Positions 5,821-61,995 of a DNA stretch of 64,000 bases are shown piece after piece. Both the position numbers and the translations under genes were made by a program. The notes below the pieces were generated by a model. It was not told the origin of the DNA, ran no database searches, and was given only the letters and a program-made list of their open reading frames with translations. Source of the DNA: a virus (lineage: Duplodnaviria > Heunggongvirae > Uroviricota > Caudoviricetes). Every line of letters begins with the position of its first letter. The stretch's first letter is position 1. The stretch is from IMG/VR virus record IMGVR_UViG_3300031417_000403, positions 187,133 to 251,132 of that record; one strand, 5' to 3'.

Positions 5821-6441
5821 ATGGACTACGTCAACTTTCAATATCTGTTTCCACCTCGGCCCGAACTGAAGATTGCCAAGGAAAACCTTGGCTTCTATCA
5901 GAAGCGCGGTTACGTCGCACAGAAGAAAAAGAACGGTACGTGCACCGTGATCTTCGCAAAAGGCGATCAAGTCATCTTCAAGACCCGTCATCCTGAAATC
6001 GACAACGGCGACCATCGCATGTGGACGCCGCAGGAAGACCACATCAAATTCTTCTCCGGCTCTGAAGGCTGGAATGTCTTCGTCGCCGAACTGCTGCACA
6101 GCAAAGTTACTGGCGGCCCGAAACACGAACTGTTCATCTTCGATCAACTCGTCTCGAATGGCGTGTCGCTTGCCGGCACCACGTTCGGTTCGCGTATGAT
6201 AGCGATGATGAAAAAGTTCGGCGGTGTTTCCGAATCCGACCAGTATCGCATCGACGACCGCATCACGCTGGCGAAATGTTTTGGTGCTGGCTTCACGGCT
6301 CTGTTCGACAAGCTCGGCAAAGAAGACGAAGGCCTTGTGCTGAAAGACCCGAAAGCAATCTTGCTGCCGTGCCACAAAGCTGACTCCAACAAATCGTGGC
6401 AAGTCAAGTGCCGCATCCCTCACGCGAATTACTCGTTCTAA
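5821..6441 (+). CDS. minimal ATP-dependent polynucleotide ligase-like nucleotidyltransferase (206 aa)
   Basis: covalent nucleotidyltransferase motifs I KKKNGT, IV EGLVLK, V WQVKCR; promoter cassette upstream. Confidence 0.6.
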   Translation: MDYVNFQYLFPPRPELKIAKENLGFYQKRGYVAQKKKNGTCTVIFAKGDQVIFKTRHPEIDNGDHRMWTPQEDHIKFFSGSEGWNVFVAELLHSKVTGGPKHELFIFDQLVSNGVSLAGTTFGSRMIAMMKKFGGVSESDQYRIDDRITLAKCFGAGFTALFDKLGKEDEGLVLKDPKAILLPCHKADSNKSWQVKCRIPHANYSF

Positions 6442-16616: not shown

Positions 16617-16747
16617 CCGAAGAAGACGATCTGATGGACCCAGATTATCTGGACCATCTGTACATGTGCTATCTCGAAGCCGGCGGAGAAGGTGAGCCAA
16701 TGAACTTCGACGAATGGCTGGAAGAACACAAAAGAGAGAACCAATGA
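16613..16747 (+). CDS. small acidic protein (44 aa)
   Basis: ATGA overlaps. Confidence 0.3.
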   Translation: MTEEDDLMDPDYLDHLYMCYLEAGGEGEPMNFDEWLEEHKRENQ

Positions 16748-17754
16748 AAAAAGATATGTTCATGGTGACGTACGGCTCGAAGCTGTACGGCACGAATACA
16801 CCCACATCCGACACCGACGAAAAGGTTGTTTACCTTCCGTCGCTTTCCGACATGCTGCTCGGCAAGAAGCTGACGATCTTCAAAGAGCGTTTCGACGCGG
16901 AAGGCAATCGCATCGGCGATGGCTTCACGATGCCGGACAACGGTGTCGAGACCGAGTACTTCCCGCTGCAGACGTTCGTTCGCGACTTCGTCAACGGCCA
17001 GACGTACGCACTCGAGATGGCTTTCGCTTTCGCCGACCAGACGAGCGGTCCGCTGAACTATTCGCGAGAGATGGTTCGCGACATGATCGAGAAGTTCGCA
17101 AACGCCGAAGTCTATTCGATGGTTGGCTTCGCGATGAAGCAAACGTTCGACTACGTTCGTCGTGGTGAACGTCTGAACTCGGCACGTTACGTCCTGGAAA
17201 CCGTCGACAAAGCAATCGGCATCGTCGGCGCCGAGTCGCGTCTGTCCGATCAGCTGAACGCGGCTGAAACCGTTCTGGACTGGATCGCTCGCAATGCGAA
17301 TCTCGAAACGGAAGTGATGACCAATGGCAAGACGCCGCAAGACAGCCTCAAGCTGAACGGCCGCAATTACCTGGCATCGACGACGCTCGAGCATCTGCGT
17401 AACCAGGTCGTGAAGGTGATCGACAAGTTCGGCGATCGTACGAATGCCGCTGCTGAAACTGACGTCGACTTCAAGTCGCTGTCGCATGCTGTGCGCGTGT
17501 ATCAGCAAGCAATCGAACTGCTCGACACCGGCCGCATCACGTTCCCACGTCCGAACGCGGAATTCTTGCTGCGCGTCAAGCAAGGTAAAGAAGACCTCGA
17601 GCAAGTGAAACGTTTGCTGATGGCACTCGACGACGAAGTGCAAGACAAGATCAAGTCATCGACGATGCGCAAGAAGACGCCGGAACTTCAAGCAGAAGCC
17701 GAAGCATGGCTGCAAGACGTGCTGTTTGAGCTGTACAACATCGAAGTAAAATAA
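16744..17754 (+). CDS. Pol-beta-superfamily nucleotidyltransferase with helical C-terminal domain (cGAS/DncV-like motif spacing)
   Basis: GSKLYGTNTPTSDTD matches GS-x3-GT-x4-SD-x-D of pol-beta NTases with DncV-like spacing; 336 aa. Confidence 0.55.
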   Translation: MKKDMFMVTYGSKLYGTNTPTSDTDEKVVYLPSLSDMLLGKKLTIFKERFDAEGNRIGDGFTMPDNGVETEYFPLQTFVRDFVNGQTYALEMAFAFADQTSGPLNYSREMVRDMIEKFANAEVYSMVGFAMKQTFDYVRRGERLNSARYVLETVDKAIGIVGAESRLSDQLNAAETVLDWIARNANLETEVMTNGKTPQDSLKLNGRNYLASTTLEHLRNQVVKVIDKFGDRTNAAAETDVDFKSLSHAVRVYQQAIELLDTGRITFPRPNAEFLLRVKQGKEDLEQVKRLLMALDDEVQDKIKSSTMRKKTPELQAEAEAWLQDVLFELYNIEVK

Positions 17755-17809
17755 TTCGAAAAAAGTTCCATTAGCAGTGTACAGGTTTAGTGGTTAGGGG
17801 TATAATGAT

Positions 17810-19506: not shown

Positions 19507-20856
19507 ATGAATTTTGTAGAAGTCCTCAAAGAAGCCGAAGCCGCGAATGGTGCTGGCACCAAGAAAGCAATCCAAGCTGCGCTGGCGAAACTCGATCCGA
19601 CAGGCCGCGCGCTGATGCGCTATGCCATGGACCCGTATAAAGTCTTCGGCGTCAAGAAGTTCGATCGTCCTGCAAGCTACGCGCAGCAAGACCCCGCCGA
19701 TATTTCCCCGCTGTTCCAATTGCTCGACGACCTGGCCGACCGCAATCTGACTGGCGACGCAGCACGTGGTGCAGTTTCCCAAGCACTGTCGAACTTCACC
19801 GAAGAAACCGCAGCATACATCGAACGCGTGATCGACAAAGACCCGCGCGCCGGCTTCTCTGCCGATACCTTCAACAAGGTATGGAAAGACGACGAGACCA
19901 TCCCAACGTTCGAAGTCATGCTCGCCGACAAGTGCGAAGACACTGACGACTTCGAAAAGAACGTCACGTTCCCGTGTCTCGCCGACGTCAAGTACGACGG
20001 CCAACGTACCATCGCGCTCGTCCGCCTCGGCCGTCCGGTCGAATATCGTGCACGCTCCGGCAAAGAGATGGATCACCTTGCCGGCCTGTTCGACGCTGAA
20101 CTGCTGCTGATCCGCAACATCGTAGGCTACGACTTCGTGATGGACGGCGAATCGTTCGCATCGGACTTCACCGAAACCATCAACGCCAAGAAGACCGGCA
20201 ACGACAAAGCGAAAGCCAACCTGAAGCTGCACTGCTTCTTCATGATGCCACTGACGCACTGGATCGCGCAGAAGACCGACATCACGATGGAAGCCAATCG
20301 TCTGGCACTCGAAGAACTGCTGCCGCAAGTCCGCGCCAAGCTGAACCTCGATCAAGACGCACTGGGCGAAGCTGTTCAAGTCGAACCGAAAGTCATTCTG
20401 ACCGACAGCGCGATCGTCAACAACTACGCCGAGATGACCGCTCGCTGCAATCACGTCATCGATGACCTGAAGCAAGAAGGTCTGATCCTGAAAGAACTGC
20501 AGGCCGTCTACACCTGGGACCGTTCGTTTGCATGGTGCAAAGTGAAACGCTTCTACGACGTCGACGCCCGCATCGTAGGCTTCTACGCTGGTCGTCCGAA
20601 GACCCGTCTGGCCGATACCGTCGGCGGTGTCAACTGCGTGGCATTCCTCGAATCCGGCGAACGCGTCGAGTTCAACGTCGGTTCCGGCTTCAGCGACGAC
20701 GATCGTGCCGACATGAAAGCCAATCCGGAAAAATGGCTGAAGGCAACTGTCGTCATCAAGTATCAAGACGTCACGCGCTCGAAGAGCAAGGCCGTCGCAT
20801 CGCTGCGCTTCTGCACGTTCGAACGTATCCGCGACGACAAGCTGGTGGAAATCTAA
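19507..20856 (+). CDS. ATP-dependent DNA ligase
   Basis: motif I CLADVKYDGQR (KxDGxR), III FVMDGE, IV EGLILK, V WCKVKRFY; 449 aa. Confidence 0.9.
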   Translation: MNFVEVLKEAEAANGAGTKKAIQAALAKLDPTGRALMRYAMDPYKVFGVKKFDRPASYAQQDPADISPLFQLLDDLADRNLTGDAARGAVSQALSNFTEETAAYIERVIDKDPRAGFSADTFNKVWKDDETIPTFEVMLADKCEDTDDFEKNVTFPCLADVKYDGQRTIALVRLGRPVEYRARSGKEMDHLAGLFDAELLLIRNIVGYDFVMDGESFASDFTETINAKKTGNDKAKANLKLHCFFMMPLTHWIAQKTDITMEANRLALEELLPQVRAKLNLDQDALGEAVQVEPKVILTDSAIVNNYAEMTARCNHVIDDLKQEGLILKELQAVYTWDRSFAWCKVKRFYDVDARIVGFYAGRPKTRLADTVGGVNCVAFLESGERVEFNVGSGFSDDDRADMKANPEKWLKATVVIKYQDVTRSKSKAVASLRFCTFERIRDDKLVEI

Positions 20857-21641: not shown

Positions 21642-21827
21642 GTGAAACTGTATGACTTCTCCGTTTACGCCGCCAGGCGAGACGCGATGCGAAAAGAGAA
21701 AGCTGCTGCCGCACGCGTTGTGGAGGTGATGGACCATATTGAAGAACCCGGTTCCATAAAGCAACTCAAGCATTGTGTCGATGATTGGTTCACTTTACAT
21801 AGGAACGTTATAGAACACCAAGCATAA
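21642..21827 (+). CDS. hypothetical protein (61 aa, GTG start)
   Basis: strong RBS aaggagggg before GTG. Confidence 0.45.
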   Translation: MKLYDFSVYAARRDAMRKEKAAAARVVEVMDHIEEPGSIKQLKHCVDDWFTLHRNVIEHQA

Positions 21828-22690
21828 TGAAACCAAAATATATCAGAGTCCTTTCGGACCTACACTTGGAACAACTACTCGGTCAACGAGAGGAATTCTT
21901 AGCTAACAGCTTTGTACCGCCCGATCCACGCGACTCGGAAAGCGTACTTGTTCTTGCTGGTGACATCAGCTCGAAACCCGCACAACTCATTCCTTTCCTG
22001 GGCTGGCTCAAAGACCGGTTCATGCGAGTCATCTACATTCCAGGCAACCACGAATACTACGGCCACGAGTTTGCTTCGTGGGAACGTGCTGTTACTGAAG
22101 CACTCAAAGAAGCACCCAATATCAAATTCTGTGGCAACGATGTTGCTGTCGAGGAATTTGAAGGCGTCCGCTTCATCTTCGGTACTCTGTGGGGCGATGG
22201 TGGATCGACGCTTGCTGAACACGCAGACATCGGCCGCTACTTGAACGACTTCCGTCTTGCACGTGTTGGCGACAAGAAATTCACTGTCGCCGATATGAAA
22301 ACGATGTATCGTTCGCAGAAGAGCAAGATCAAAGCATTGCTGGAAACTCCGTTCGACGGCAAGACCGTTGTCGCGACCCATCACATGCCATCGTACCAAC
22401 TTTGCCATCCACGTTTCGGTGGCGCAATCAACGGTGGCTTCGCTTCGCACAGCGATGATTTGATGGGCGGTGAACACGCACCAGCAGTTTGGATTCACGG
22501 CCACACTCACGATACGATCGACCGCATTCTGCATGGTTGCCGCGTCGTCTGCAATCCATCGGGCTATCGTCAAGAGTACGGCACCATCTTCAATCTGTTC
22601 GGGCCGAAGTTCATCACGATCGAAAACATGCAGTACGTTGAGCCAGTGAAACCGATGTGGCATGCAACCCCGGAGAAAGTCAGTGAATAA
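21827..22690 (+). CDS. calcineurin-like metallophosphoesterase
   Basis: motifs RVLSDLH, LAGD, GNHEYY, GHTH; 287 aa. Confidence 0.8.
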   Translation: MKPKYIRVLSDLHLEQLLGQREEFLANSFVPPDPRDSESVLVLAGDISSKPAQLIPFLGWLKDRFMRVIYIPGNHEYYGHEFASWERAVTEALKEAPNIKFCGNDVAVEEFEGVRFIFGTLWGDGGSTLAEHADIGRYLNDFRLARVGDKKFTVADMKTMYRSQKSKIKALLETPFDGKTVVATHHMPSYQLCHPRFGGAINGGFASHSDDLMGGEHAPAVWIHGHTHDTIDRILHGCRVVCNPSGYRQEYGTIFNLFGPKFITIENMQYVEPVKPMWHATPEKVSE

Positions 22691-22700
22691 TGTGATTGAC

Positions 22701-23099
22701 ATGTTCAATCCAAAGAAGCCTCGGGAAGCTCCGCCTTCCATCGAGGCTCTTGCCGTACGTTGCACTGACCTTATCAATGAAAACTGGGAACGCTTCGCTC
22801 GCAACAATCGACTCAACGATTACTTTCTGTCATGCGTTCCATTGTGGGCGATGCCACAGCTGAACTATCTCTCAGACCTCAATGGCGTTTCGACAATTGA
22901 AAACAAACTCGGATTGTCGGTCGTCGTCAACGCGCCTGGAACATCACCATCATCGAAGCTCGGCTGGGTTGCCGGCTTCGAAATCAAAGGAGTGAAAGTC
23001 GAAACTCCAGTGATGATGTGTGAAGCGTACGCCAGGTGTTTCAACATTCTCCTTTTCCTCAAGCTGTCGCGCGAACTGACAAATCACGGCATCAACTGA
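22701..23099 (+). CDS. hypothetical protein (132 aa)
   Basis: ORF track, first ATG after upstream stop. Confidence 0.45.
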   Translation: MFNPKKPREAPPSIEALAVRCTDLINENWERFARNNRLNDYFLSCVPLWAMPQLNYLSDLNGVSTIENKLGLSVVVNAPGTSPSSKLGWVAGFEIKGVKVETPVMMCEAYARCFNILLFLKLSRELTNHGIN

Positions 23100-23134
23100 A
23101 ATGTTGGCGTGCAAGCAACATTGCGCGTGATAGA

Positions 23135-23674
23135 ATGCTTTCCATGCTAATCTTCTATAAAGAACTAACGATAGAAGAAGGTTTCGAAGTCCTCGAGAAA
23201 ACAAAGTACGACCGTCTTGTTGGCGGCCGACAAGTATCTCAATGCTCGGGCTGGAATCTTTTTCAAACATACAAAGGCAAACCAATCACGTGTTGGAAGT
23301 GCGGATGCGCTGCCGACCGATGGATTGCTGATCGTGGGCCGAAGCACATGGGAAATCCAGTGCTCAATTTGTACGGCATGCGATACGGCGAGTTGGTGCT
23401 GATGAATCGTGACCACATCATTCCAAAATCTTTGGGCGGTGTTGATGTTAACGAAAATCTGCGGCCTGCATGCGAAGTTTGTAACGGCGGACGCGGCAAC
23501 ACGCTGACGCCAGAAGACTTGCAATTCCGAAAGGATCATCCCGAGTTGATCAGCGAGCATCGACTCGAAGAAGGAAAGAAGTCTGCGCGCAAAGCAATCA
23601 AAGCGCACGAAGGACATCCGGAAGAACAAGCACGAATTGCATTGCCATTCGAAATGATTGGCGAACCACTTTAA
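23135..23674 (+). CDS. HNH homing endonuclease
   Basis: CWKCGC...NRDHIIPKSLGG...NLRPACEVCN HNH/zinc-finger motifs; promoter-like tagaatgctttcc overlaps start. Confidence 0.75.
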   Translation: MLSMLIFYKELTIEEGFEVLEKTKYDRLVGGRQVSQCSGWNLFQTYKGKPITCWKCGCAADRWIADRGPKHMGNPVLNLYGMRYGELVLMNRDHIIPKSLGGVDVNENLRPACEVCNGGRGNTLTPEDLQFRKDHPELISEHRLEEGKKSARKAIKAHEGHPEEQARIALPFEMIGEPL

Positions 23675-23684
23675 AGGAAATACC

Positions 23685-25088
23685 ATGGGACAACCAACAC
23701 AAGAAATCGCACAAGGCGGCTGGAAAGCTGAAGCTCTGAAAGACGGCATTGTCGTTACCAACGAAGAAGAAATGCAGGCATATCTTGAAGCTGATGCAAC
23801 TGCAGCCGAACAAGCTGAAGTGCTGCGTCGCCAACAACTCGTCGACGAAGCTGTGGCAGACGGCCGCAAGCTGGTGACTGTTCGTCAAATCACTTCGATC
23901 GAAGATATTCCTGGCGCCGACCTGATCAAGAAAGCAATGGTCGAAGGCTGGCCAGTCGTCGTAAAAGCCGGCGAGTTCAAAGTTGGCGACCTGTGCGTCT
24001 TCTTCGAGGTCGACTCGTACCTGCCAATGTCGGACGAACGTTTCAAGTTCCTCGAAAAGAACGCCATCAACTGGAACGACATTCCAGGTGCACGACTGAA
24101 AACGATTCGCCTGCGCAAGCAGCTGTCGCAAGGCCTCGCACTTCCGCTCGATGCGTTCCCGGAAATCATCGATCATCTGATCGGCCTGGGAATCGGGAAA
24201 AGCGAAGTCGAAAAAATTCGCGACATCAACTTCACTGGCCTGCTCGGCATCATGAAGTGGGACAAGCCTGTCAACGCACAACTGGCTGGCATGGCGAAGG
24301 GTAACTTCCCAACGTTCCTCCGCAAGTCGGACCAAGAACGTTGCCAGAACATGGGCTCGCAAATCTTCGGCTACGATGAAACCTTCTCGCCGGTTCCGGC
24401 AGAAGCCGTCGCTGCAATGTCGCAAGAAGACAAGGACGCCGCAATCGCTGCTGGTCGTATGCGCATGACCGGCGATGTACTGCAGTTCGTCCGTCCGCCG
24501 CAAGCAAGCCGCGACACTCGTTACGAAGTCACGCTGAAAATGGACGGCAGTTCGATGACCGTGTATCGTTACGGTGCCGGCGGCGAACCGCTGGAAGGCG
24601 TGTGCTCGCGTAACCTCGATCTGAAGATGGAAGGCAACGACGACAACGCCTTCGTGCAGATGGCGAACAGCGGTATTCTGCAAGTGCTGCGAAGCGTCGG
24701 TCAAGACATCGCACTTCAAGGCGAGCTGATGGGTCCTGGTATCCAAGGCAACCGCGAAGGTTTCAAGACCAATCGCTTCTTCGTCTACAACATCTTCGAC
24801 ATCGACAAAGGCGAGTTCATGACTCCGCGCGAGCGCAAGTCGCTGGTGGCAAAGATGAACAGCATTGCCCGCGTCGAGAACATCAACGTCGTGATCGAGC
24901 ATGTTCCGACCCTGCACTTTGGCGTCACGCTCGAAGAACTGGGCATCAAGAACATGGACGAACTGCTGCAGTTCGCCATTGGCCCAAGCATGAACAACAA
25001 CGTGCGTGAAGGCCTGGTGTTCAAAGCAATGGACGGTTCGCACCAGTTCAAGGCCATCAGCAACCTGTACCTCGAACAAGAAAAATGA
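23685..25088 (+). CDS. ATP-dependent RNA ligase (Rnl-type nucleotidyltransferase with N-terminal extension)
   Basis: motif I TLKMDGSS (KxDG), IV EGLVFK, V FKAISNLY; RBS aaaggaaatacc; 467 aa. Confidence 0.7.
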   Translation: MGQPTQEIAQGGWKAEALKDGIVVTNEEEMQAYLEADATAAEQAEVLRRQQLVDEAVADGRKLVTVRQITSIEDIPGADLIKKAMVEGWPVVVKAGEFKVGDLCVFFEVDSYLPMSDERFKFLEKNAINWNDIPGARLKTIRLRKQLSQGLALPLDAFPEIIDHLIGLGIGKSEVEKIRDINFTGLLGIMKWDKPVNAQLAGMAKGNFPTFLRKSDQERCQNMGSQIFGYDETFSPVPAEAVAAMSQEDKDAAIAAGRMRMTGDVLQFVRPPQASRDTRYEVTLKMDGSSMTVYRYGAGGEPLEGVCSRNLDLKMEGNDDNAFVQMANSGILQVLRSVGQDIALQGELMGPGIQGNREGFKTNRFFVYNIFDIDKGEFMTPRERKSLVAKMNSIARVENINVVIEHVPTLHFGVTLEELGIKNMDELLQFAIGPSMNNNVREGLVFKAMDGSHQFKAISNLYLEQEK

Positions 25089-49292: not shown

Positions 49293-49322
49293 AAAAGGCT
49301 GTGCAAGACAGTGTGAACCGGG

Positions 49323-49328
49323 TATAAT
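49323..49328 (+). promoter_or_regulatory. promoter -10 TATAAT immediately upstream of suppressor tRNA
   Basis: gggtataatgattccactgaacg, same subclass as the 17810 and 55991 copies. Confidence 0.55.
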
Positions 49329-49362
49329 GATTCCACTGAACGAAACAGGCAGTACAGATTAA

Positions 49363-49438
49363 GCCTCGTTAGCTCAACTGGCAGAGTGGCGGTCTCTAAA
49401 ACCGAGGGTTGCGGGTTCGATCCCCGCACGGGGCACCA
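49363..49438 (+). tRNA. amber suppressor tRNA, anticodon CUA (tRNA-Trp-like anticodon arm), CCA encoded
   Basis: cloverleaf: acceptor gcctcgt/acggggc, anticodon arm gcggt CTCTAAA accga, T-arm gcggg ttcgatc cccgc. Confidence 0.7.
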
Positions 49439-51271: not shown

Positions 51272-51631
51272 ATGCATAAGCTCTAGATTTCCAAACCGCA
51301 AAAGACGTACCTCTACACCATCTCGCGCCGAGACCTCCCACTCGCGCAACAGGCTATTCAAGCCGGCCACGCTGCCGTTGAACACGCCTACACGTATGGC
51401 CGACCAGTGGATCACCACCCGTCGTACATTCACCTCACGATCAAAAACAAGTCGCAACTTGAATCGCTCCGCCAGAAGCTGAACGATGCAGGCATTCCTA
51501 CAGCCGAATTTCACGAGCCGTACCAGGAATGGGGACTGACCGCGATCGCATGCATCCTCACCGAAGACCAACGACATTTGACAAAGGGCTTGCAGCTCTG
51601 GCGTCTGCCTACCCAAGGAGAACAGCAATGA
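51272..51631 (+). CDS. PTH2-family peptidyl-tRNA hydrolase with in-frame TAG at codon 5 (requires amber suppression)
   Basis: ATG 51272, TAG 51284-51286, then TISRRDLPLAQQAIQAGHAAVEHAY (PTH2 N-terminal motif) with no in-frame start before GTG 51407; C-terminal LTIKNKSQLESLRQKLNDAGIP...GLTAIACIL matches PTH2 fold. Confidence 0.5.
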
Positions 51632-51943: not shown

Positions 51944-52468
51944 ATGTCGTCGTGTAGTCAGTCGAAGGGTCAAACGATCCTCCAGCATGGCGAAGCCGTT
52001 GCGGCCCGATACAAAGACCTCATTGGCGAACAGAAAATGGAATGGCGACTGCCGGACTGGTTCGATCTGGATTACCTGCTGCCACTCTGCCCACCGGCAG
52101 AAATCATGGAGCAGTACCACATCTACCACGATTGCGGCAAGCCGTATTGTGTAACCGTTGACGATGAAGGTCGCCAACACTTTCCAGACCACGCGCGCAT
52201 CAGCGCAGCGATCTGGCGAGTCAACGGCGGAAGTGAGCAGATCGCCGAACTCATCCAGCGAGATATGGACATGCACACGATCAAGCCAGCGGACGCTGCT
52301 GGATACGATCGCATGGACCTCGCACCAGCACTTCTGCTCACGGCACTCAGTGAACTTCATGCCAACGCTGAAATGTTCGGAGGTATTGAAAGCACGTCTT
52401 TCAAGATCAAATTCAAGGCACTCAACAAAGTCGGTCGTAACATCATCAACAAACTTAAAGGAAACTAA
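51944..52468 (+). CDS. HD-domain phosphohydrolase (possible N-terminal extension from ATG 51902 through in-frame TAG 51926)
   Basis: H...HD...H...H...D pattern (LQHGE, IYHDCGKP, PDHARI, DMHTIK); upstream leader MQMNAHHL-TAG in frame. Confidence 0.5.
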   Translation: MSSCSQSKGQTILQHGEAVAARYKDLIGEQKMEWRLPDWFDLDYLLPLCPPAEIMEQYHIYHDCGKPYCVTVDDEGRQHFPDHARISAAIWRVNGGSEQIAELIQRDMDMHTIKPADAAGYDRMDLAPALLLTALSELHANAEMFGGIESTSFKIKFKALNKVGRNIINKLKGN

Positions 52469-56359: not shown

Positions 56360-56435
56360 GGTTCCTTAGCTCAGCTGGTAGAGCGGATGCCTTACAAGCA
56401 TTAGGTCGCAGGTTCGACTCCTGCAGGAACCACCA
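56360..56435 (+). tRNA. tRNA-Val (anticodon TAC), CCA encoded
   Basis: acceptor ggttcct/aggaacc, anticodon loop cttacaa. Confidence 0.8.
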
Positions 56436-56448
56436 AATCAATATGCAC

Positions 56449-56535
56449 TGTCGATAGTTCAAGTGGTAAGAACAGCTATACATTAGCGCATGAAAGGTTC
56501 AACTCCTTTCTCGCACAGTGCATATTGATTTGGTA
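56449..56535 (+). repeat. 12-bp inverted repeat (caatatgcactg/cagtgcatattg) enclosing a degenerate tRNA-like core
   Basis: core has D-arm gttc aagtggtaa gaac and T-arm aaagg ttcaact ccttt but no valid anticodon arm. Confidence 0.45.
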
Positions 56536-56633
56536 CACTGGAATGGTAAACATGGCCGAGTAAATCGGCCGGTGTGAGACGGACAGATAAAGCTGCGACG
56601 CTTTTAACAGTGTGCTTTAAATTCGTTGTGATG

Positions 56634-56639
56634 TATAAT
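56634..56639 (+). promoter_or_regulatory. promoter extended -10 tgtataat
   Basis: TGn-TATAAT. Confidence 0.5.
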
Positions 56640-56662
56640 TCTCTCATCAACTGGAGAATATT

Positions 56663-56887
56663 ATGGCAGACGTCAGGGTAACAGCAGCATTCGCACAAGC
56701 GATTGATCTTACGATCGAAAAGTTTTCGGATCACTTCGACGGCAAAGCTGAACAAGTAAAACGTCTGCTTCACGCAGACATGACCAAGTTTGAAATTGCG
56801 GCAGCGCTTCAATGTGCTGGCGTAAAAAATCAAAGCGATCTTGCACAAGCAATTCTGAATTGTGCTCGTCGAATTTTGAAGTGGTAA
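56663..56887 (+). CDS. hypothetical protein (74 aa)
   Basis: ATG after tgtataattctctcatcaactggagaatatt. Confidence 0.45.
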   Translation: MADVRVTAAFAQAIDLTIEKFSDHFDGKAEQVKRLLHADMTKFEIAAALQCAGVKNQSDLAQAILNCARRILKW

Positions 56888-56895
56888 CACATTTT

Positions 56896-56978
56896 GTACG
56901 TCCTATCCTTGGAGAGATAAGCTGCCTGTAAAGCAGTGGCCTTTGGCTGAACTGGTTCGATTCCAGTGGCGTGCACCA
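56896..56978 (+). tRNA. tRNA-Tyr-like (anticodon GTA, long variable arm), CCA encoded; acceptor with 2 G-U pairs
   Basis: anticodon arm gctgc ctgtaaa gcagt; variable ggcctttggctga; T-arm actgg ttcgatt ccagt. Confidence 0.5.
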
Positions 56979-57091
56979 TAATCAAAGCGTACTCTTGTAG
57001 TCCCGTCCATCAGGACGACCCGAATCGCGTGGACAAAGGGAACTCAATGAGTTTAGTGTAAGCAGCACACTTGAGTGCGCTTTGATTATGG
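56976..57091 (+). repeat. 14-bp inverted repeat (ccataatcaaagcg/cgctttgattatgg) bridging the 3' end of one tRNA and the 5' end of the next
   Basis: arms overlap CCA of upstream tRNA and first G residues of downstream tRNA; ~88-nt interior with hairpins. Confidence 0.45.
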
Positions 57092-57160
57092 GGTGTTTAC
57101 AGGGGTAGGCGCTGCACTTGCACTGCGGTAGGAGGGGTTCGAGTCCCCTACGCTCCACCA
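57090..57160 (+). tRNA. short tRNA-Ala-like (anticodon TGC, G3-U70), reduced D-arm, CCA encoded
   Basis: acceptor ggggtgt/acgctcc with G3-U70; anticodon arm ctgca cttgcac tgcgg; T-arm agggg ttcgagt cccct; only 71 nt. Confidence 0.45.
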
Positions 57161-57165
57161 GATTT

Positions 57166-57239
57166 GCCCGCGTAGCTCAATGGCAGAGCGCTGCATTGAC
57201 ATTGCAGATACAGTGGTCCGATTCCACTCGTGGGTACCA
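57166..57239 (+). tRNA. tRNA-Val (anticodon GAC)
   Basis: acceptor gcccgcg/cgtgggt, anticodon arm ctgca ttgacat tgcag. Confidence 0.7.
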
Positions 57240-57336
57240 GAATTCGCGAAGCTACGTAGCAATACGTGGCCAGACACAGCACGATGAAGAACGTTGAAAA
57301 AATACGAGTTAGTCGTCGGAGTGCTGTGACAGATAT

Positions 57337-57428
57337 GGAGGATAGGCTGCAAGGTGCAGACGCGGACTTGAAATCCGTCCCACTGGGGCCAACCCTCGGT
57401 GAGGGTTCGATTCCTTTATCCTCCGCCA
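57337..57428 (+). tRNA. tRNA-Ser (anticodon TGA), long variable arm
   Basis: acceptor ggaggat/atcctcc G73; anticodon arm gcgga cttgaaa tccgt. Confidence 0.75.
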
Positions 57429-57450
57429 AGTTTATATTTTGGAGAATGTG

Positions 57451-57687
57451 ATGGACGCAAAAACGCTGTTCAAGAAGTTACGCTTCGACGCGGAGTTCGG
57501 TACCAGTGAAGATACTCCGCGACCGATCATGACACATGGATCGCAAAGTCGTCAATCAGATTTTGCCACAGGCAAACGCCCAGGGCGTTTTGCACATCTC
57601 ACGAACGACTACATCGACAGTCTGTCCGATGCAGAACTCGAACGTGAAATGGTAACGTTTATCTATCGCTGTTTTCAACAGCGGTAA
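57451..57687 (+). CDS. hypothetical protein (78 aa)
   Basis: RBS ggaga before ATG. Confidence 0.45.
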   Translation: MDAKTLFKKLRFDAEFGTSEDTPRPIMTHGSQSRQSDFATGKRPGRFAHLTNDYIDSLSDAELEREMVTFIYRCFQQR

Positions 57688-57694
57688 CGAATTT

Positions 57695-57770
57695 GGGGGA
57701 TTAGCTCAGCTGGGAGAGCGGGTGCTTTGCAAGCATCAGGTCAACGGTTCGATCCCGTTATCCTCCACCA
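57695..57770 (+). tRNA. tRNA-Ala (anticodon TGC)
   Basis: canonical; G3-U70; loop tttgcaa. Confidence 0.85.
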
Positions 57771-57957
57771 AGTTTGCTGTATACGTTATGGACAAAAGAC
57801 GATCGTAATTCGATTGTGAAGGACGTGCGTGTACAGCGATCAAACGCAGGGTGCCAGTTTAGGCCGGATTAAAAAATCCCTGGATGGCTCGTCGATTTCC
57901 GCTTGACCGAGTACCGTATTAGAGACGTGGTCACCTCTAATAGCTATTGACCACTAT

Positions 57958-58097
57958 GGAGTTGTAGGGAATTGGAAAACCCACGTAAACATCGATTGCA
58001 AATCTTTGTTGTTTCTACAACCGCTCGCTAATTGGTTATCCACTGTAAATGGCGCGCCTCTGGCTTAGGTAGGTTCGAATCCTACCCAACTCCACCA
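57958..58097 (+). tRNA. long tRNA-like gene A (140 nt): tRNA acceptor/D/T arms plus ~65-nt conserved insertion (ATTGGTTATCCACT-GTA-AAT)
   Basis: acceptor ggagttg/caactcc, D-arm ggg aattggaaaa ccc, T-arm gtagg ttcgaat cctac, CCA; interior paralogous to the 59423 and 61502 genes. Confidence 0.45.
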
Positions 58098-58105
58098 GAA
58101 TTCTT

Positions 58106-58179
58106 GCGGGTATAGCTCAATGGTAGAGCTGAAGCCTTCCAAGCTTAAGACTGGGGTTCGATTCCCCATACCCGCTCCA
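58106..58179 (+). tRNA. tRNA-Gly (anticodon TCC)
   Basis: acceptor gcgggta/tacccgc U73; loop cttccaa. Confidence 0.8.
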
Positions 58180-58284
58180 TCATTTAAGGTCTTTGACGGA
58201 CTAGTCATCCGCTGTGGCGAAATACCGGTAGACTGCTGGAAAAGTAGTTATACACGACTTCACCCTAAGACACTGGGTGTTGAA

Positions 58285-58375
58285 GCAGAGACCTCAAATG
58301 ATGGAACCGTTGTTAATTGGTTATCAGGTGAAATACTGGCTTCGGTCAGTTAGAGGGTGTCGAATCCGCTCAGAC
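58285..58375 (+). repeat. degenerate copy of the ATTGGTTATC insertion module
   Basis: gaaccgttgttaattggttatcaggtgaaatactgg...gggtgtcgaatcc. Confidence 0.35.
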
Positions 58376-58491
58376 CGTGAAAACGGTTGCCTCTCAGAGG
58401 ACATTACCGATTGACGCTTTTTGTTCCTCTCTTTTTCGAGTGTTGGTGAGCTGGACATTTTGTTACCCAGTCGAACACTCTTTTTAACAAT

Positions 58492-58570
58492 GCCCACGTA
58501 CGCAATTTGGCAAAGCGGCGATGCTCAAAACATCGTGATTCTGCCGGTTCGACTCCGGCCGTGGGTACCA
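58492..58570 (+). tRNA. tRNA with anticodon CAA but short variable arm (non-canonical for Leu)
   Basis: acceptor gcccacg/cgtgggt, anticodon arm cgatg ctcaaaa catcg, T-arm gccgg ttcgact ccggc. Confidence 0.5.
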
Positions 58571-58575
58571 ACAAT

Positions 58576-58658
58576 GCGCCAGTAGATAATGTGAATTGGT
58601 ACAACTGACTCGTTTAGAGCGAGTAACCTTGTGGGTTCGAGTCCCACCTGGCGCACCA
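58576..58658 (+). tRNA. tRNA with anticodon TAG, enlarged D region and short variable arm (non-canonical for Leu)
   Basis: acceptor gcgccag/ctggcgc, anticodon arm actcg tttagag cgagt, T-arm gtggg ttcgagt cccac. Confidence 0.5.
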
Positions 58659-58670
58659 AACAAAAGTGAT

Positions 58671-59126
58671 ATGAAGAATATAACCGATGAAATGCTGACT
58701 GAAGCAGTAGCAGCGAGCACGACGTTCCGCGAAGTGCTTCGCAAGCTCGGCATCAAAGAAGCAGGCGGATCGCACGGCCACTATACGCGTCGTGCTAAAA
58801 ACCTCGGTCTCGACATGAGTCACATGCTCGGTAAGTCTTCATCATCTGGTAAGATTAGCCACAAACGAAAATATGCTGCAGACATTCTTGTGAAGCGAGA
58901 AAGCGGCGGTCGAGCAAAAGCAGAACAGCTTGTCAGAAGTTTGTTGGAAATTGGTAGGAAACATGAGTGTGAGAAATGCGGACAACTGCCTGAATGGCAC
59001 GGTCATCCACTGACGCTTGACGTCGATCACATCAATGAAGATTGGCTGGACGATCGTGCTGAGAACTTGCGGTTCTTGTGCCCGAACTGCCATAGTCAGT
59101 TAAGCAGACGTTTGATTCAAAAATAA
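58671..59126 (+). CDS. HNH homing endonuclease
   Basis: LDVDHINEDWLDDRAENLRFLCPNCH. Confidence 0.7.
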   Translation: MKNITDEMLTEAVAASTTFREVLRKLGIKEAGGSHGHYTRRAKNLGLDMSHMLGKSSSSGKISHKRKYAADILVKRESGGRAKAEQLVRSLLEIGRKHECEKCGQLPEWHGHPLTLDVDHINEDWLDDRAENLRFLCPNCHSQLSRRLIQK

Positions 59127-59127
59127 A

Positions 59128-59170
59128 ATTCAGCTTGTCGAAGAACAGTGTATAATGCTTGCTCTTCGAC
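59128..59170 (+). promoter_or_regulatory. 12-bp hairpin (gcttgtcgaaga/tcttcgacaagc) with -10 gtgtataatgctt in its loop
   Basis: terminator-like stem with TATAATGCTT subclass promoter inside. Confidence 0.45.
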
Positions 59171-59191
59171 AAGCTTTGAGAATACTTAGTT

Positions 59192-59262
59192 GCGGGTAGG
59201 GCCTGGTCACCAGCAGGGTCTCATAAGCCTTCGCCATCACACGTTCGAATCGTGTACCCGCT
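59192..59262 (+). pseudogene. tRNA-like pseudogene (CAT anticodon loop, defective D-arm, no CCA)
   Basis: acceptor gcgggta/tacccgc, anticodon arm agggt ctcataa gcctt, T-arm cacg ttcgaat cgtg. Confidence 0.3.
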
Positions 59263-59422
59263 ACTAAGTGTTTTTAAGAATGCTCGGCCGTACTTAATGC
59301 GGCACGCTTGAAATGAAGCCACGCATGACTGCCCACCGCGAAAGCGGTGCAAGGAGGAAGGTTGTGGTAGCAAGCATCAGCGATGGATAGTGATCCATTA
59401 CGAACTGCTAGAGTTCGACAAT

Positions 59423-59553
59423 TGAGGTGTAGTGTAAGGGTTAGCACGCGAAAAACATCGATCGCGCATTTTTGTTCAGCAATGAACCGCCCTGTGATTG
59501 GTTATCCACTCATAAAGGCGAAGATCCGGTTCGAGTCCGGACGACCTCAGCCA
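59423..59553 (+). tRNA. long tRNA-like gene B (131 nt) with conserved insertion (ATTGGTTATCCACT-CAT-AAAGG)
   Basis: acceptor tgaggtg/gacctca, D-arm gtg taagggttag cac, T-arm tccgg ttcgagt ccgga, CCA; D-stem covaries with gene A. Confidence 0.45.
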
Positions 59554-59574
59554 AGTTTATTGTGAAGCTGTCAT

Positions 59575-59700
59575 CCAAAATAGTAACCGCTTGCTTATTG
59601 GTTATCTACTTTTACTATGATGAAAAACCGAGAGGGTTCGATTCCCTTAATGTGCAGTGGTCAAGGGCACAATTCCCGATAGCTACTTTTGTTGCTATTT
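59575..59700 (+). repeat. 5'-truncated degenerate copy of the long tRNA-like gene
   Basis: aaccgcttgcttattggttatctacttttactatg...gagggttcgattccctt. Confidence 0.35.
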
Positions 59701-59722
59701 TGAATGACAGTTTCTGTTTTAT

Positions 59723-59797
59723 CGGAGTGTAGTCCAGTGGTAGGTCGCATGGTTTGGGACCATGAACTCGCAGGTTCGATTCCTGCCACTCCGACCA
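59723..59797 (+). tRNA. tRNA-Pro (anticodon TGG), copy 1
   Basis: acceptor cggagtg/cactccg, anticodon arm catgg tttggga ccatg. Confidence 0.8.
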
Positions 59798-60165
59798 ATT
59801 TATGGAGGATGCTATGACATCGCTAAACGCAACAAGGGTCAACCACGTACGTCTGTAAACGGCGTCAGTAAGAAATTCAAACGGATGGCGGAGTTATACA
59901 AATACTTCGCTCGACATTGGACAGGGTTAGACTTCAGCGATGAAGCATTACTCGAAATGTTCAACAGCGAATCTTATGGCACGAGAGTGAATCCGAAAAA
60001 CGGATACCTCATCGGCAAAGGTTACTTGAACATGACAGTGACATCCTGGAAAGAAGACATTGCACTCGGCACCTTGTTTGTCAAGGAACTGTATGCTGAT
60101 GGAAATTTTCCAGAATGGTGGCTCGACGGAATCTTCCAAGATTCGCCGGGCTACAAAGATAGAAT
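59798..60165 (+). mobile_element. insertion between duplicated tRNA-Pro genes carrying one ORF (59884..60175)
   Basis: both copies begin atcggagtgtagtccagtggtaggtcg; the ORF ends with TAG inside copy 2. Confidence 0.4.
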
Positions 60166-60175
60166 CGGAGTGTAG
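59884..60175 (+). CDS. hypothetical protein (97 aa) carried on the inter-tRNA-Pro insertion
   Basis: first in-frame ATG after tRNA copy 1; TAG stop. Confidence 0.35.
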
Positions 60176-60240
60176 TCCAGTGGTAGGTCGTCTGGTTTGG
60201 GACCAGAAACTCGGGTGTTCGATTCACCCCACTCCGACCA
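60166..60240 (+). tRNA. tRNA-Pro (anticodon TGG), copy 2
   Basis: acceptor cggagtg/cactccg, anticodon arm tctgg tttggga ccaga. Confidence 0.8.
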
Positions 60241-60245
60241 ACTTA

Positions 60246-60321
60246 GGCGAGGTAGCTCAGCGATTAGAGCGGCCGTCATTGCGACGGAGGTACGGTGGTT
60301 CAAATCCACCCCTCGCCACCA
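60246..60321 (+). tRNA. atypical tRNA (probable anticodon TTG, with A33 and C37)
   Basis: acceptor ggcgagg/cctcgcc, anticodon region gccgt cattgcg acgga, T-arm ggtgg ttcaaat ccacc. Confidence 0.45.
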
Positions 60322-60355
60322 AGAATTCGCGTTGATAGACGTATAAATACCCTCT

Positions 60356-60862
60356 TTGAGGAGCGTCTATCAAATGGCAAGAAATAAAATTGAAGTAACG
60401 AAAGAACAAATTGAATGGGCTTTAACGCAAAGTAATTCTGCGAAAGCTGCTTCAGATGTGATAGGATTATCCTTTATGACGTTCAAGCGACGTTGTAAAG
60501 AGTTTGGCTTGTACGCACCGAATCAAGGTTTGAAAGGTACGAAGAAGCCAAATCCAAAGTGGGAGATTCCACTTGAAAAGATTTTCAGCAACGAACACTT
60601 CATGACTGGCGCTGCCATCAAGAAGAAAATGTTGAAAGCAGGATTATGGACCGACGAGTGTTCCGAATGCAAACAGCCGCCCATGTGGAACGGCAAGAAG
60701 CTAGTTTTGCAGGTAGATCATATCGACGGTGATAAAACGAACAACGCGCAATCCAACCTCAGATTGCTATGTCCAAACTGCCATACGCAGACACATACCT
60801 TTTCGAAGGGCAAGTTCAGAACCAAAGCGGTTGTGGCGGAACTGGTAGACGCGTTAGGTTGA
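60356..60862 (+). CDS. HNH homing endonuclease (3' end overlaps tRNA-Leu)
   Basis: LQVDHIDGDKTNNAQSNLRLLCPNCH. Confidence 0.7.
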   Translation: MRSVYQMARNKIEVTKEQIEWALTQSNSAKAASDVIGLSFMTFKRRCKEFGLYAPNQGLKGTKKPNPKWEIPLEKIFSNEHFMTGAAIKKKMLKAGLWTDECSECKQPPMWNGKKLVLQVDHIDGDKTNNAQSNLRLLCPNCHTQTHTFSKGKFRTKAVVAELVDALG

Positions 60863-60913
60863 GGGCCTAATGCCCGAAAGGGCGTGTGGGTTCGAGTCCC
60901 ATCATCCGCACCA
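60827..60913 (+). tRNA. tRNA-Leu (anticodon GAG)
   Basis: class II; anticodon arm ttagg ttgaggg cctaa; variable tgcccgaaagggcg. Confidence 0.75.
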
Positions 60914-61103
60914 GAATATGGTGTAAGAACTTGTTCATGTGCGAGTACGTGTAACTGCCATCAGTCCGGTTATGCTTCCGACGCCTTGACTGTTCAACAG
61001 AGGACTAGTGCGGTACAATGGGAAATGCATAGGTTGGTAGCCGTCGCATATACTCCTCGTACTCAGGAGAATCTGATTGAGACAACATGAACAAACGAAC
61101 AAT

Positions 61104-61178
61104 GTCGCGTTAGCCCAGTGGTAAGGTCACGGATTGCAAATCCGATGTTCGGGGGTTCGATTCCCTCACGCGACTCCA
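61104..61178 (+). tRNA. tRNA-Cys (anticodon GCA)
   Basis: acceptor gtcgcgt/acgcgac U73; loop ttgcaaa. Confidence 0.75.
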
Positions 61179-61184
61179 AGTTTG

Positions 61185-61250
61185 ACAACCGACATGCATT
61201 GGTTATCTCGGAAAAATCTCCGATGCAAACTCTTTTGTTGTCATATAATT
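61185..61250 (+). repeat. degenerate ATTGGTTATC module fragment
   Basis: caaccgacatgcattggttatctcggaaaaatctccgatgc. Confidence 0.35.
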
Positions 61251-61252
61251 AT

Positions 61253-61354
61253 GCAGTGCCCATTGTCTGGGTGTAATGTCAGTCTGGTAGACGGCCTTGT
61301 TTGGAACGAGGAGGGCGCTGGTTCAAATCCAGCCACCCAGACAATGGGCACTGC
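61253..61354 (+). repeat. 21-bp perfect inverted repeat (gcagtgcccattgtctgggtg / cacccagacaatgggcactgc) enclosing a tRNA-like core
   Basis: inner 7 bp of each arm form the acceptor stem of the enclosed tRNA-like gene. Confidence 0.5.
61267..61341 (+). tRNA. tRNA-Pro-like (TGG loop) embedded in a 21-bp extended stem, no CCA
   Basis: acceptor ctgggtg/cacccag, anticodon arm ccttg tttggaa cgagg, T-arm gctgg ttcaaat ccagc. Confidence 0.4.
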
Positions 61355-61418
61355 GAATGAGTAAGTCCACATGAGATGACGCGTCGTCTCTTAACGGGTA
61401 TTGCCGGGTGGCAACTAT

Positions 61419-61493
61419 GCAGGTGTAGCTCAGCGGTAGAGTCTTTCGTTGCCAACGAAAATGTCGAGGGTTCGAATCCCTTCACCTGCTCCA
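61419..61493 (+). tRNA. tRNA-Gly (anticodon GCC)
   Basis: acceptor gcaggtg/cacctgc U73; arm tttcg ttgccaa cgaaa. Confidence 0.8.
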
Positions 61494-61501
61494 GTTTTAA
61501 T

Positions 61502-61638
61502 GTAGAGGTAGCTCAGTCTGGCAGAGCGACCGCCTCGTCGAAAGACACCTGTTTGCGCAACTTGTTGACAAACGTCAACCGAATGTGAATAGTTATCCAA
61601 GCAGTATGTCGTAGGTTCGAATCCTACCCTCTACACCA
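61502..61638 (+). tRNA. long tRNA-like gene C (137 nt) with variant insertion (AATAGTTATCCAAGCAGTATG)
   Basis: acceptor gtagagg/cctctac, D-arm gctc agtctggc agagc, T-arm gtagg ttcgaat cctac, CCA; internal hairpin gttgac aaac gtcaac. Confidence 0.45.
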
Positions 61639-61644
61639 AACCCG

Positions 61645-61690
61645 CTTGCAGCGTGCTGCAAGCTCGCTCCTGAACACGAGCGCTTTCAAA
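61645..61690 (+). terminator. tandem hairpins (cttgcagc gt gctgcaag; gctcg...cgagc)
   Basis: two perfect stems followed by ctttcaaaaagg. Confidence 0.35.
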
Positions 61691-61701
61691 AAGGTTCCGA
61701 T

Positions 61702-61988: not shown

Positions 61989-61995
61989 AAAATAC

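Follow-up and report, generated by a model that had tools for sequence, protein, structure and literature searches.

The 64,000 nucleotides analysed here (positions 187,133 to 251,132 of IMG/VR record IMGVR_UViG_3300031417_000403, a virus of the Caudoviricetes; hereafter the window) encode genes for the handling of RNA ends and of tRNA that, at about even chances, fall into two separate units. The first is a nucleic-acid end-processing block (16.7-25.1 kb) that includes an RlaP-type nucleotidyltransferase, a binuclear metallophosphoesterase with a partner of 138 amino acids (aa), an HNH nuclease and an RNA ligase of the Rnl5 class. A role in healing and sealing RNA is plausible for this block, and it most likely mends RNA broken by host ribonuclease defences. 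The second is a module (49.3-52.5 kb) composed of an amber suppressor tRNA, tRNA(CUA), a gene related to peptidyl-tRNA hydrolase 2 (PTH2-like) and a gene for an HD-motif protein, and it would be gated by the suppressor. We consider it possible, at slightly less than even chances, that the PTH2-like protein cannot be made unless the suppressor tRNA of the phage reads through an in-frame stop codon located 1-7 codons after the ATG. An initial annotation of the window had placed the phosphoesterase, HNH, ligase, PTH2 and HD genes in a single putative tRNA repair toolkit; Pfam, PHROG and profile searches, together with frame translation, find every gene that it named in place or shifted by a few codons.

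The window originates from an uncultured jumbo phage of roughly 375 kb. An identical copy of the phosphoesterase protein is recorded on a metagenomic contig of 375,421 bp, and related contigs in IMG/VR, which reach about 370 kb, make up a family. A megablast search against 50,697 phage genomes returned no close cultured relative of the block; in cultured phages the best protein identities are 30-43%, and none is close at the DNA level. Nearly all genes in the window are encoded on the + strand.

The phosphoesterase matches the Pfam Metallophos domain (3.8e-10) and phrog_1649 (1.3e-40). All six of the motifs expected for PF00149 (DxH, GD, GNHE, H, GH and GHxH) are invariant over 34 homologues, with D11, H13, D46, N74, H75, H185/H186, H226 and H228 as the individual residues. 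Its model, which has a predicted local distance difference test (pLDDT) score of 93, has among its structural neighbors PptH and Rv0805, a cyclic-nucleotide phosphodiesterase; the modelled fold points to a binuclear centre and to hydrolysis of phosphodiesters or phosphomonoesters, without a finer assignment. The PptH protein of Mycobacterium tuberculosis (Rv2795c, PDB 6UNC) strips phosphopantetheine from carrier proteins, whereas no phage context hints at such a substrate. We also considered two other identities. Grouping with the DNA nucleases Mre11/SbcD, which the initial annotation had named as the outcome that would speak against RNA repair, is ruled out by the ranking of folds and by the domain content, as the protein has no capping domain and no SbcC partner. 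A Pnkp-type phosphatase was rejected, since the protein does not belong to the lambda-phosphatase / PPP-like clade.

What had first been noted as a small open reading frame (ORF) between the phosphoesterase and HNH genes is a real and conserved gene for a protein of 138 aa. It follows the phosphoesterase gene in all family loci, including one (L092) where the pair is inverted. Searches of Pfam, PHROG, NCBIfam and PDB profiles gave no match to this protein, and among 140 representatives, nearly all of them stand-alone and roughly 125-160 aa long, there was no informative fusion.

The RNA ligase, for which the start codon at 23685 proposed at the outset is retained, belongs to the Rnl5 class exemplified by DraRnl and NgrRnl. 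It contains a PF21189 OB domain (5.5e-35, residues 72-164) and a PF09414 domain (residues 289-463, in the numbering of a 476-aa form), scores 160.2 bits against a cutoff of 151.15 with the DraRnl equivalog model TIGR02306 of NCBIfam, and aligns over both domains with NgrRnl (5COT) at an E value of 5e-74. The motif residues (the lysine of KxDGSS, QGE, EGLVFK and FKAIS) do not vary across 17 sequences. Past motif V the protein extends for 12 residues and thus has no C-terminal appendage, as is typical of Rnl5 architecture. It shares with DraRnl and NgrRnl an N-terminal OB domain, a C-terminal adenylyltransferase domain and all nucleotidyltransferase motifs, but it has about 60 extra N-terminal residues and an inter-domain insert of about 45 aa, both of which are kept across the phage family. 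The genomic partners differ as well: DraRnl shares its operon with a DEDDh-like protein, while the phage enzyme is accompanied by the HNH nuclease and the phosphoesterase.

The hallmark of the Rnl5 class is the Mn2+-dependent sealing of 3'-OH(RNA)/5'-PO4 nicks in duplexes. Enzymes of this class join an RNA 3'-OH to a 5'-phosphate, need both ends to lie at a nick in a duplex, and have little activity on single strands (PMC4408790, PMC5397189); DNA is accepted in both the 5'-PO4 and the template position (PMC5397189). The halves of cleaved tRNAs, which had been suggested as the substrate, are therefore not an obvious choice for a ligase whose characterised relatives seal duplex nicks and act poorly on single-stranded RNA (PMC4408790).

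The 179-aa HNH nuclease encoded just upstream of the ligase is kept together with Rnl5 in nearly every family locus, being missing only in L092, and it also adjoins Rnl5 in one locus outside the family (L103). Some Rnl2-family ligases are reported to be fused to HNH. Fusion of this HNH nuclease with an RNA ligase elsewhere was not borne out: 50 of 50 homologues stand alone.

Another gene of the block, located 4 kb upstream of the phosphoesterase/Rnl5 pair, had been overlooked. It encodes a Pol-beta nucleotidyltransferase of the RlaP / T4 NrdC.11 type. The PF10127 match (29.7 bits against a cutoff of 23) aligns only residues 15-46, and a PDB sequence search gave no match; tblastn similarity to nrdC.11 of KVP40/nt-1 reaches 1e-38 over 95% of the length, and the Pol-beta core motif YGSKLYG...DTDEK is visible in the product. 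Characterised members of the family, which includes T4 NrdC.11, add 1-2 nucleoside monophosphates to 3'-OH ends of RNA; they require this RNA 3'-OH, refuse 3'-phosphate ends and do not use DNA 3' ends (PMC12776372).

In more than 20 loci of the phage family the genes occur in the order RlaP, 149-aa gene on the - strand, DNA ligase, phosphoesterase, 138-aa partner, HNH, Rnl5, p26125 and p27276, with protein identities of 38-67%. In addition, we examined loci on unrelated contigs, namely 73 Rnl5 loci from outside the family and 80 loci anchored on the phosphoesterase, within a radius of 10 kb; all ORFs within 6 kb of Rnl5 were clustered and the cluster representatives were scanned. A homologue of the window phosphoesterase is encoded within 10 kb of Rnl5, always downstream of it, in 12 of the 73 loci, compared with three for the clamp loader and one for a homologue of the window DNA ligase. 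The phosphoesterase and Rnl5 are thus co-localised above chance.

The genes found most often within 6 kb of Rnl5 in the same 73 loci encode a ligase of the T4 Rnl1 type (17 loci) and an AAA_33 kinase resembling polynucleotide kinase (14 loci), followed by the window phosphoesterase family and DUF2828/DUF7788 proteins (8 each), a DSP-type phosphatase (7), and AAA_28, DNA ligase and Metallophos_2 proteins (6 each). We take DUF2828/DUF7788 to be related to TROVE. The gene order is Rnl1, AAA_33 kinase, Rnl5 and phosphoesterase in locus L126, and Rnl5, Rnl1, DSP and phosphoesterase in L096. Rnl5 and the phosphoesterase are 6 nt apart in L147 and 390 nt apart, in the opposite order, in L071, and in L021 the phosphoesterase adjoins a divergent RNA ligase. 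Genes for Rnl1, DSP, kinase or TROVE-like proteins are also present in phosphoesterase-anchored loci from outside the family. Because of these neighbors outside the family, we conclude that the phage Rnl5 and phosphoesterase families are both residents of RNA-repair neighborhoods. The earlier view of an RNA healing and sealing set thus stands as far as the phosphoesterase-ligase pair is concerned, which is conserved and recurs in unrelated phages, in some of them with a kinase and Rnl1, while the reaction steps are only proposed.

Two genes from these neighborhoods deserve mention on their own account. The 149-aa gene (18735-19184) between RlaP and the DNA ligase has no Pfam match; it is the sole minus-strand gene within the + strand block and the most conserved protein of the neighborhood, with 48-93% identity over the family loci. 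In Erwinia phage Kaldavass (L084), a 504-aa gene at 7929-9443, annotated as an RNA-binding protein and located 650 nt downstream of Rnl5, matches the DUF2828/TROVE-like family, and a gene for a ribosome hibernation factor is encoded nearby.

A promoter-like motif, TGTACA-N17-(G)TATAAT, was identified at 15 sites on the + strand and at 16 on both strands, against 0.2 expected. The + strand sites begin at 1734, 4678, 5764, 6446, 8046, 15754, 17778, 25695, 27214, 34428, 36456, 42291, 44800, 49300 and 55813, and all 15 are intergenic and upstream of + strand genes. They split the region into units, with the site at 15754 leading to RlaP, that at 5764 preceding the 5821 gene and that at 49300 preceding tRNA(CUA). 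The interval between the site at 17778 and the following one (25695-25723) encodes the DNA ligase, the phosphoesterase and its partner, the HNH nuclease and Rnl5.

We infer the substrates and all reaction steps of the block as follows. The PptH-like phosphoesterase, together with its 138-aa partner, would clear 2',3'-cyclic or 3'-phosphate blocks to leave a 3'-OH, on which RlaP, needing such an end, could refill one or two lost 3' nucleotides. A 3'-phosphoesterase is logically needed before RlaP because the latter requires an RNA 3'-OH and refuses a 3'-phosphate (PMC12776372). Rnl5 would then join the 3'-OH/5'-PO4 nick between ends held in a duplex, such as those in the stems of tRNA or rRNA or in RNA:DNA hybrids. 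The 5' kinase could come from a part of the genome beyond the window or from the host, or it could be needless if the break already carries a 5'-phosphate, as would be the case for ends left by metal-dependent nucleases such as HNH. The DNA ligase and an OB-less adenylyltransferase encoded elsewhere in the window may provide additional sealing or adenylylating activities.

The initial annotation had recognised no P-loop kinase, and two further searches of the 64 kb agree with it. A six-frame scan for Walker-A motifs matched solely the clamp loader, an ABC ATPase and adenylosuccinate synthetase, and tblastn with 14 phage AAA_33 kinases gave no match in the window. Likewise, 19 phage sequences of T4-type Rnl1 (PF09511) gave no tblastn match there, and neither did DSP and TROVE sequences. 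No methyltransferase family was found among the roughly 60 window ORFs scanned, a scan that was not aimed at Hen1.

These results set the block apart from the bacterial Pnkp/Hen1 system, with which it had been compared at first, and from the Pnkp/Rnl1 system of T4. In common with them, a phosphoesterase (here putatively) heals 3' ends, an ATP-dependent ligase seals, the two are encoded together, and the element also encodes tRNA-related functions. In contrast to them, the window encodes no kinase, the ligase is Rnl5 rather than Rnl1 or Rnl4 and would favour nicks in duplexes over breaks in anticodon loops, and the PptH-like phosphoesterase is of neither the lambda-phosphatase nor the HAD type; the assignment to the Pnkp/Hen1 type is therefore abandoned. 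A closer counterpart is the RNA-repair set of jumbo phages described by Iyer et al. 2021, which consists of RNA ligases, RlaP, calcineurin-like and HD phosphatases, PTH2 and tRNA arrays, and which those authors read as a counter to host attack on the translation apparatus (PMC7824862). The phage described here shares with that complement many tRNAs, ATP-dependent RNA ligases, RlaP, calcineurin-like or HD phosphatases and PTH2. It departs from that complement in having a ligase of the Rnl5 class in particular, a PptH-like phosphoesterase that comes with its own 138-aa partner and a stand-alone HNH gene in a fixed place beside the ligase, and in lacking a kinase gene nearby. The survey of jumbo phages reportedly builds on work by Burroughs and Aravind from 2016. 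The repair block is thus a variant combination of an already published kind of jumbo-phage system.

Several observations weigh against a heal-and-seal role of the block. The window contains no homologue of a kinase, Rnl1, RtcB, DSP or TROVE protein. Among solved structures the phosphoesterase is closest to a phosphopantetheinyl hydrolase rather than to an enzyme that heals RNA ends, and the modelled fold does not reveal its own substrate. The synteny of the family reaches from the clamp loader to p27276 and takes in every gene, repair-like or not, so conservation within the family may merely mirror collinear genomes. No other gene of the window cluster is encoded within 10 kb in 54 of the 80 phosphoesterase loci. 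Cultured phages with Rnl5 (mostly of Pseudomonas and Aeromonas) and those with the phosphoesterase (Vibrio, Escherichia, Rhizobium, Synechococcus) are largely separate sets, and no such phosphoesterase is encoded close to the Rnl5 gene of S-CREM1, BcepSauron or Kaldavass. Finally, the sole genetic evidence on an Rnl5 enzyme concerns DNA repair (PMC5397189).

Some of these points would be expected if the genes formed no functional unit at all and were collinear neighbors: a phosphodiesterase acting independently, a domesticated homing HNH and Rnl5 on its own. The phosphoesterase could then be an anti-defence enzyme that degrades a cyclic-nucleotide signal, or a PptH-like hydrolase of protein phosphodiesters; PptH and Rv0805 are both among its structural neighbors, some calcineurin-like enzymes of phages are predicted by Iyer et al. 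to degrade signals (PMC7824862), and the window has other free-standing HNH genes. We nevertheless regard this explanation as unlikely. The Rnl5-phosphoesterase pair recurs outside the family at varying distances, with direct adjacency in L126, L147 and L071, and the HNH gene has a fixed position in nearly all family loci and diverges like its neighbors, whereas homing genes would be expected to be patchy.

A function on the DNA side seems more doubtful still. The block would then belong to a region of replication and repair, in which Rnl5 could seal nicks at ribonucleotide patches or RNA-primer remnants, the phosphoesterase could clean blocked DNA 3' ends and HNH could nick DNA; the sealing of nicks with 3' ribonucleotides has been proposed for DraRnl, and D. 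radiodurans with a deletion of DraRnl is more sensitive to ionising radiation and slower to reassemble its genome (PMC5397189). The use of DNA as 5'-PO4 and template strand by Rnl5, the promoter interval shared with an ATP-dependent DNA ligase, the nearby clamp loader, the dCMP deaminase of the region and the DNA ligase found near Rnl5 in six of the 73 unrelated loci agree with such a function, but the commonest neighbors of Rnl5 elsewhere are RNA-repair genes (Rnl1, PNK-like kinase, TROVE-like and DSP), RlaP is inactive on DNA 3' ends and the phosphoesterase lacks the hallmarks of Mre11.

The second unit had been counted as part of the repair toolkit; instead, tRNA(CUA), the PTH2-like gene and the HD gene form a conserved module of their own, apart from the repair block. 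The suppressor tRNA gene has its own promoter-like site and lies 1.9 kb upstream of the PTH2-like gene. The latter was missed in the source annotation, in which an antisense ORF is called instead. Its body (51287-51631) has no canonical start after the in-frame TAG, and it was spotted through a weak cross-hit and frame translation. The match of the window copy to Pfam PTH2 (PF01981) is weak (18.7 bits against a cutoff of 23), but nine of 21 orthologues match this domain, the best at 2.5e-8, and the family profile aligns with archaeal Pth2 over its full length at an E value of 0.008. In the active-site loops GKGK is replaced by PLAQQ and DAG by EPY. Judged from these sequence comparisons, the family appears to be a divergent relative of Pth2.

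The HD protein contains an H...HD motif. Its HDIG match is weak (E 0.004, 17 bits against a cutoff of 27.6), and there was no match to it in Pfam or in a PDB sequence search. The HD gene comes after the PTH2-like gene in 36 loci and immediately before it in three (L234, L279 and L286). In L234 the two share one open frame without an intervening stop, and in XacN1 (ORF364) and Xoo-sp13 (Xoo-sp13_327) they are annotated as a single coding sequence. Because the two genes are adjacent and in some phages fused, their products probably work together.

The layout of the orthologous PTH2-like genes is a Shine-Dalgarno sequence, an ATG, 1-7 codons (usually 1-4), an in-frame stop codon and the conserved body. 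We counted such leader stops in non-redundant genes and scored suppressor tRNAs in the fetched flanks. The leader stop is TAG in 35 of 37 genes, TGA in one and TAA in one. A tRNA(CUA) is present in the flank of 28 of the 35 TAG genes and no suppressor tRNA in that of the other seven (four of which are in loci shorter than 5 kb); in no case was a mismatching suppressor found alone. The TGA gene (L176) is accompanied by two tRNA(UCA) genes and no tRNA(CUA), and the TAA gene (L236) has no suppressor tRNA in its flank. A tRNA(CUA) is also encoded near 31 of the 46 family members with an ordinary start. The leader stop codon matches the anticodon of the neighboring suppressor (TAG with CUA, TGA with UCA). 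Leader-TAG genes occur in Ralstonia phage RsoM2USA, Acinetobacter phage ME3, Serratia phage BF, Cronobacter phage GAP32, Xanthomonas phage XbC2 and a 595-kb uncultured phage, where annotations usually omit them or give them a truncated start.

TAG is the rarest stop codon of the window (4 of 77), the genome of which uses the standard code. Genome-wide recoding of TAG was considered and rejected, since the standard code leaves genes intact and the sole credible in-frame TAG is that of the PTH2-like gene. The phage shares a phage-encoded tRNA(CUA) with recoded gut phages (bioRxiv 10.1101/2021.08.26.457843) and with XacN1 (PMC5852040), but unlike in stop-codon-recoded gut phages, TAG is merely a rare stop here. 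A further parallel is the autoregulatory recoding of prfB, another translation-related gene whose expression hangs on how an early in-frame stop is handled. In prfB this involves a frameshift and no suppressor tRNA.

In the window copy the suppressor tRNA would decode the in-frame stop at codon 5, so that the PTH2-like protein is produced at a level that follows suppression activity. Together with the HD protein it would probably remove the peptidyl- or aminoacyl-tRNAs that read-through or stalled ribosomes leave behind. Three points speak against suppressor gating or against this chemistry: the TGA/UCA pairing is a single compensatory case, the sole TAA leader lacks an ochre suppressor in its flank, and the family lacks the canonical GKGK loop, so its chemistry may differ from that of Pth2.

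The leader layout may also be compatible with termination and reinitiation after a mini-ORF. According to this alternative, the short ATG-X(1-7)-stop leader is regulatory, the body is translated by reinitiation or from an ATT, ATC or GTT start independently of the suppressor, and both genes merely reside in a tRNA region. The codon following the stop is indeed often ATT, ATC or GTT, and the TAA leader without a nearby ochre suppressor fits as well. Mini-ORFs of 2-4 codons, such as the lambda bar minigenes, provoke drop-off of peptidyl-tRNA, a property that would suit a sensor upstream of a peptidyl-tRNA hydrolase. However, several loci have AAC or ACA after the stop, which are not start-like; TAG is the leader stop in nearly all genes in spite of its rarity in the window; the sole TGA leader is paired with tRNA(UCA) in place of tRNA(CUA); and family members with an ordinary ATG are also tightly linked to tRNA(CUA). 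Translation independent of the suppressor is thus rather unlikely, although the least improbable of the alternatives considered here.

Some loci of the module carry further elements. Permuted genes for transfer-messenger RNA (tmRNA) are located beside the PTH2-like/HD pair in 7 of 22 loci scanned. Four loci (L183, L184, L186 and L231) have two tandem PTH2-like genes, one with an ATG-X3-TAG leader and one with an ordinary ATG (at about 2330 and 3001 in L183), beside two tRNA(CUA) genes and a tmRNA. No tmRNA was found in the window by ARAGORN, by Rfam in gathering and E-value modes, or by blastn with the tmRNAs of relatives. A 440-nt stretch just upstream of the PTH2-like gene (50831-51271) is free of ORFs and has no Rfam family and no similarity to the tmRNAs of relatives.

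The positions of the features discussed are collected in Table 1.

Table 1. Principal features of the two units and of related genes in the window
Feature	Position	Strand	Basis or remark
Stand-alone ligase-type adenylyltransferase domain (predicted), 206 aa, no OB domain	5821..6441	+	motifs, homologues, model
RlaP / T4 NrdC.11-type Pol-beta nucleotidyltransferase	16744..17754	+	PF10127, tblastn, motif
Promoter-like site TGTACA-N17-TATAAT	17778..17806	+	opens the interval of DNA ligase, phosphoesterase, HNH and Rnl5
ATP-dependent DNA ligase (NTase + OB)	19507..20856	+	PF01068, PF14743, phrog_114 2e-79
Binuclear metallophosphoesterase, phrog_1649, PptH-like fold	21827..22690	+	Pfam, PHROG, motifs
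138-aa phosphoesterase partner	22683..23099	+	best start GTG 22683, overlaps phosphoesterase stop
Stand-alone HNH nuclease, 179 aa	23135..23674	+	Pfam HNH/HNH_5
Rnl5 (DraRnl/NgrRnl) RNA ligase	23685..25088	+	Pfam, NCBIfam, NgrRnl (5COT) match, motifs
Promoter-like site and tRNA(CUA), amber suppressor, encoded CCA	49300..49438	+	ARAGORN, Rfam tRNA 60 bits, cloverleaf fold
PTH2-like gene	51272..51631	+	AGGA-N7-ATG CAT AAG CTC TAG ATT TCC..., then 114-codon conserved body
HD-motif protein (phrog_14850, 5e-56)	51944..52468	+	H...HD motif
tRNA array with interspersed HNH genes	56360..63982	+	ARAGORN, Rfam

The small protein encoded at 5821 had been read as ligase-like from its motifs, and this reading proved right. 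The motifs KKNGT (I), AELL (III), FIFD (IIIa), EGLVLK (IV) and WQVKCR (V) are present, and K36/K37, E90, D108, E170-K175 and K196 are invariant over its homologues. The protein itself has no Pfam match, but many of the homologues (202-215 aa) match PF01068, and the family profile finds DNA ligases in PDB at an E value of 1e-3. The AlphaFold model (pLDDT 87) superposes in Foldseek on the nucleotidyltransferase (NTase) domains of DNA ligases with template modelling (TM) scores of 0.60-0.68 (E 2e-8 at TM 0.67), and capping enzymes also superpose. The product is predicted from this model to have an OB-less adenylyltransferase fold, which does not imply ligase activity. Its start codon is fixed because a promoter-like site sits at 5764-5792.

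ARAGORN identifies 26 tRNA genes between 49 and 64 kb, one of them with an aberrant two-base anticodon. Three more (61502-61635, 62097-62171 and 63381-63449) are recognised by Rfam and not called by ARAGORN, and one of these is 134 nt long and may hold an insertion or intron. Two HNH/HNH_3 genes within the array (58596-59126 and 60356-60862) have the look of homing endonucleases and belong to a family different from that of the HNH nuclease beside Rnl5. Elsewhere the window encodes an isocitrate lyase (449-1726, Pfam ICL 2e-107), which is an unusual auxiliary metabolic gene for a phage, a dCMP deaminase (7423-7956), an OmpA-domain protein (30548-32200), a bifunctional NMN adenylyltransferase/Nudix protein (41059-42282) and an adenylosuccinate synthetase (about 45.2-46.5 kb). 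The region 34795-39149 contains an ABC-transporter-like set composed of a putative membrane protein, assigned from position alone, an ATPase (35651-36448) and an NMT1-like binding protein (36706-37815), followed by an S11 D-Ala-D-Ala carboxypeptidase (38334-39149).

The physiological role of Rnl5 has been described as uncharted, and the phage neighborhoods supply a concrete context of RNA repair for it. They also point to a candidate 3'-end-healing enzyme of the PptH-like type, a type that has not been tied to RNA repair before.

For the second unit, the reason why jumbo phages with the standard code carry amber suppressor tRNAs has been unexplained, and the authors of the XacN1 genome could identify no target for their suppressor tRNAs (PMC5852040). 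A full-text literature search found no description of a leader stop matched to a suppressor, and in the jumbo-phage survey of Iyer et al. 2021 we found no mention of suppressor tRNA or tmRNA and, in its passage on PTH2, none of a leader stop codon (PMC7824862). The leader-stop gene is present in phages that are already grown in laboratories and offers a direct experimental handle. If suppressor gating is true, no natural target of the amber suppressor tRNAs in standard-code jumbo phages would have been identified before the PTH2-like gene (GAP32, BF, ME3, RsoM2USA, XbC2 and relatives of XacN1), and the module would constitute a built-in sensor or feedback loop that ties a peptidyl- or aminoacyl-tRNA hydrolase, sometimes together with a phage tmRNA, to the read-through of stop codons.

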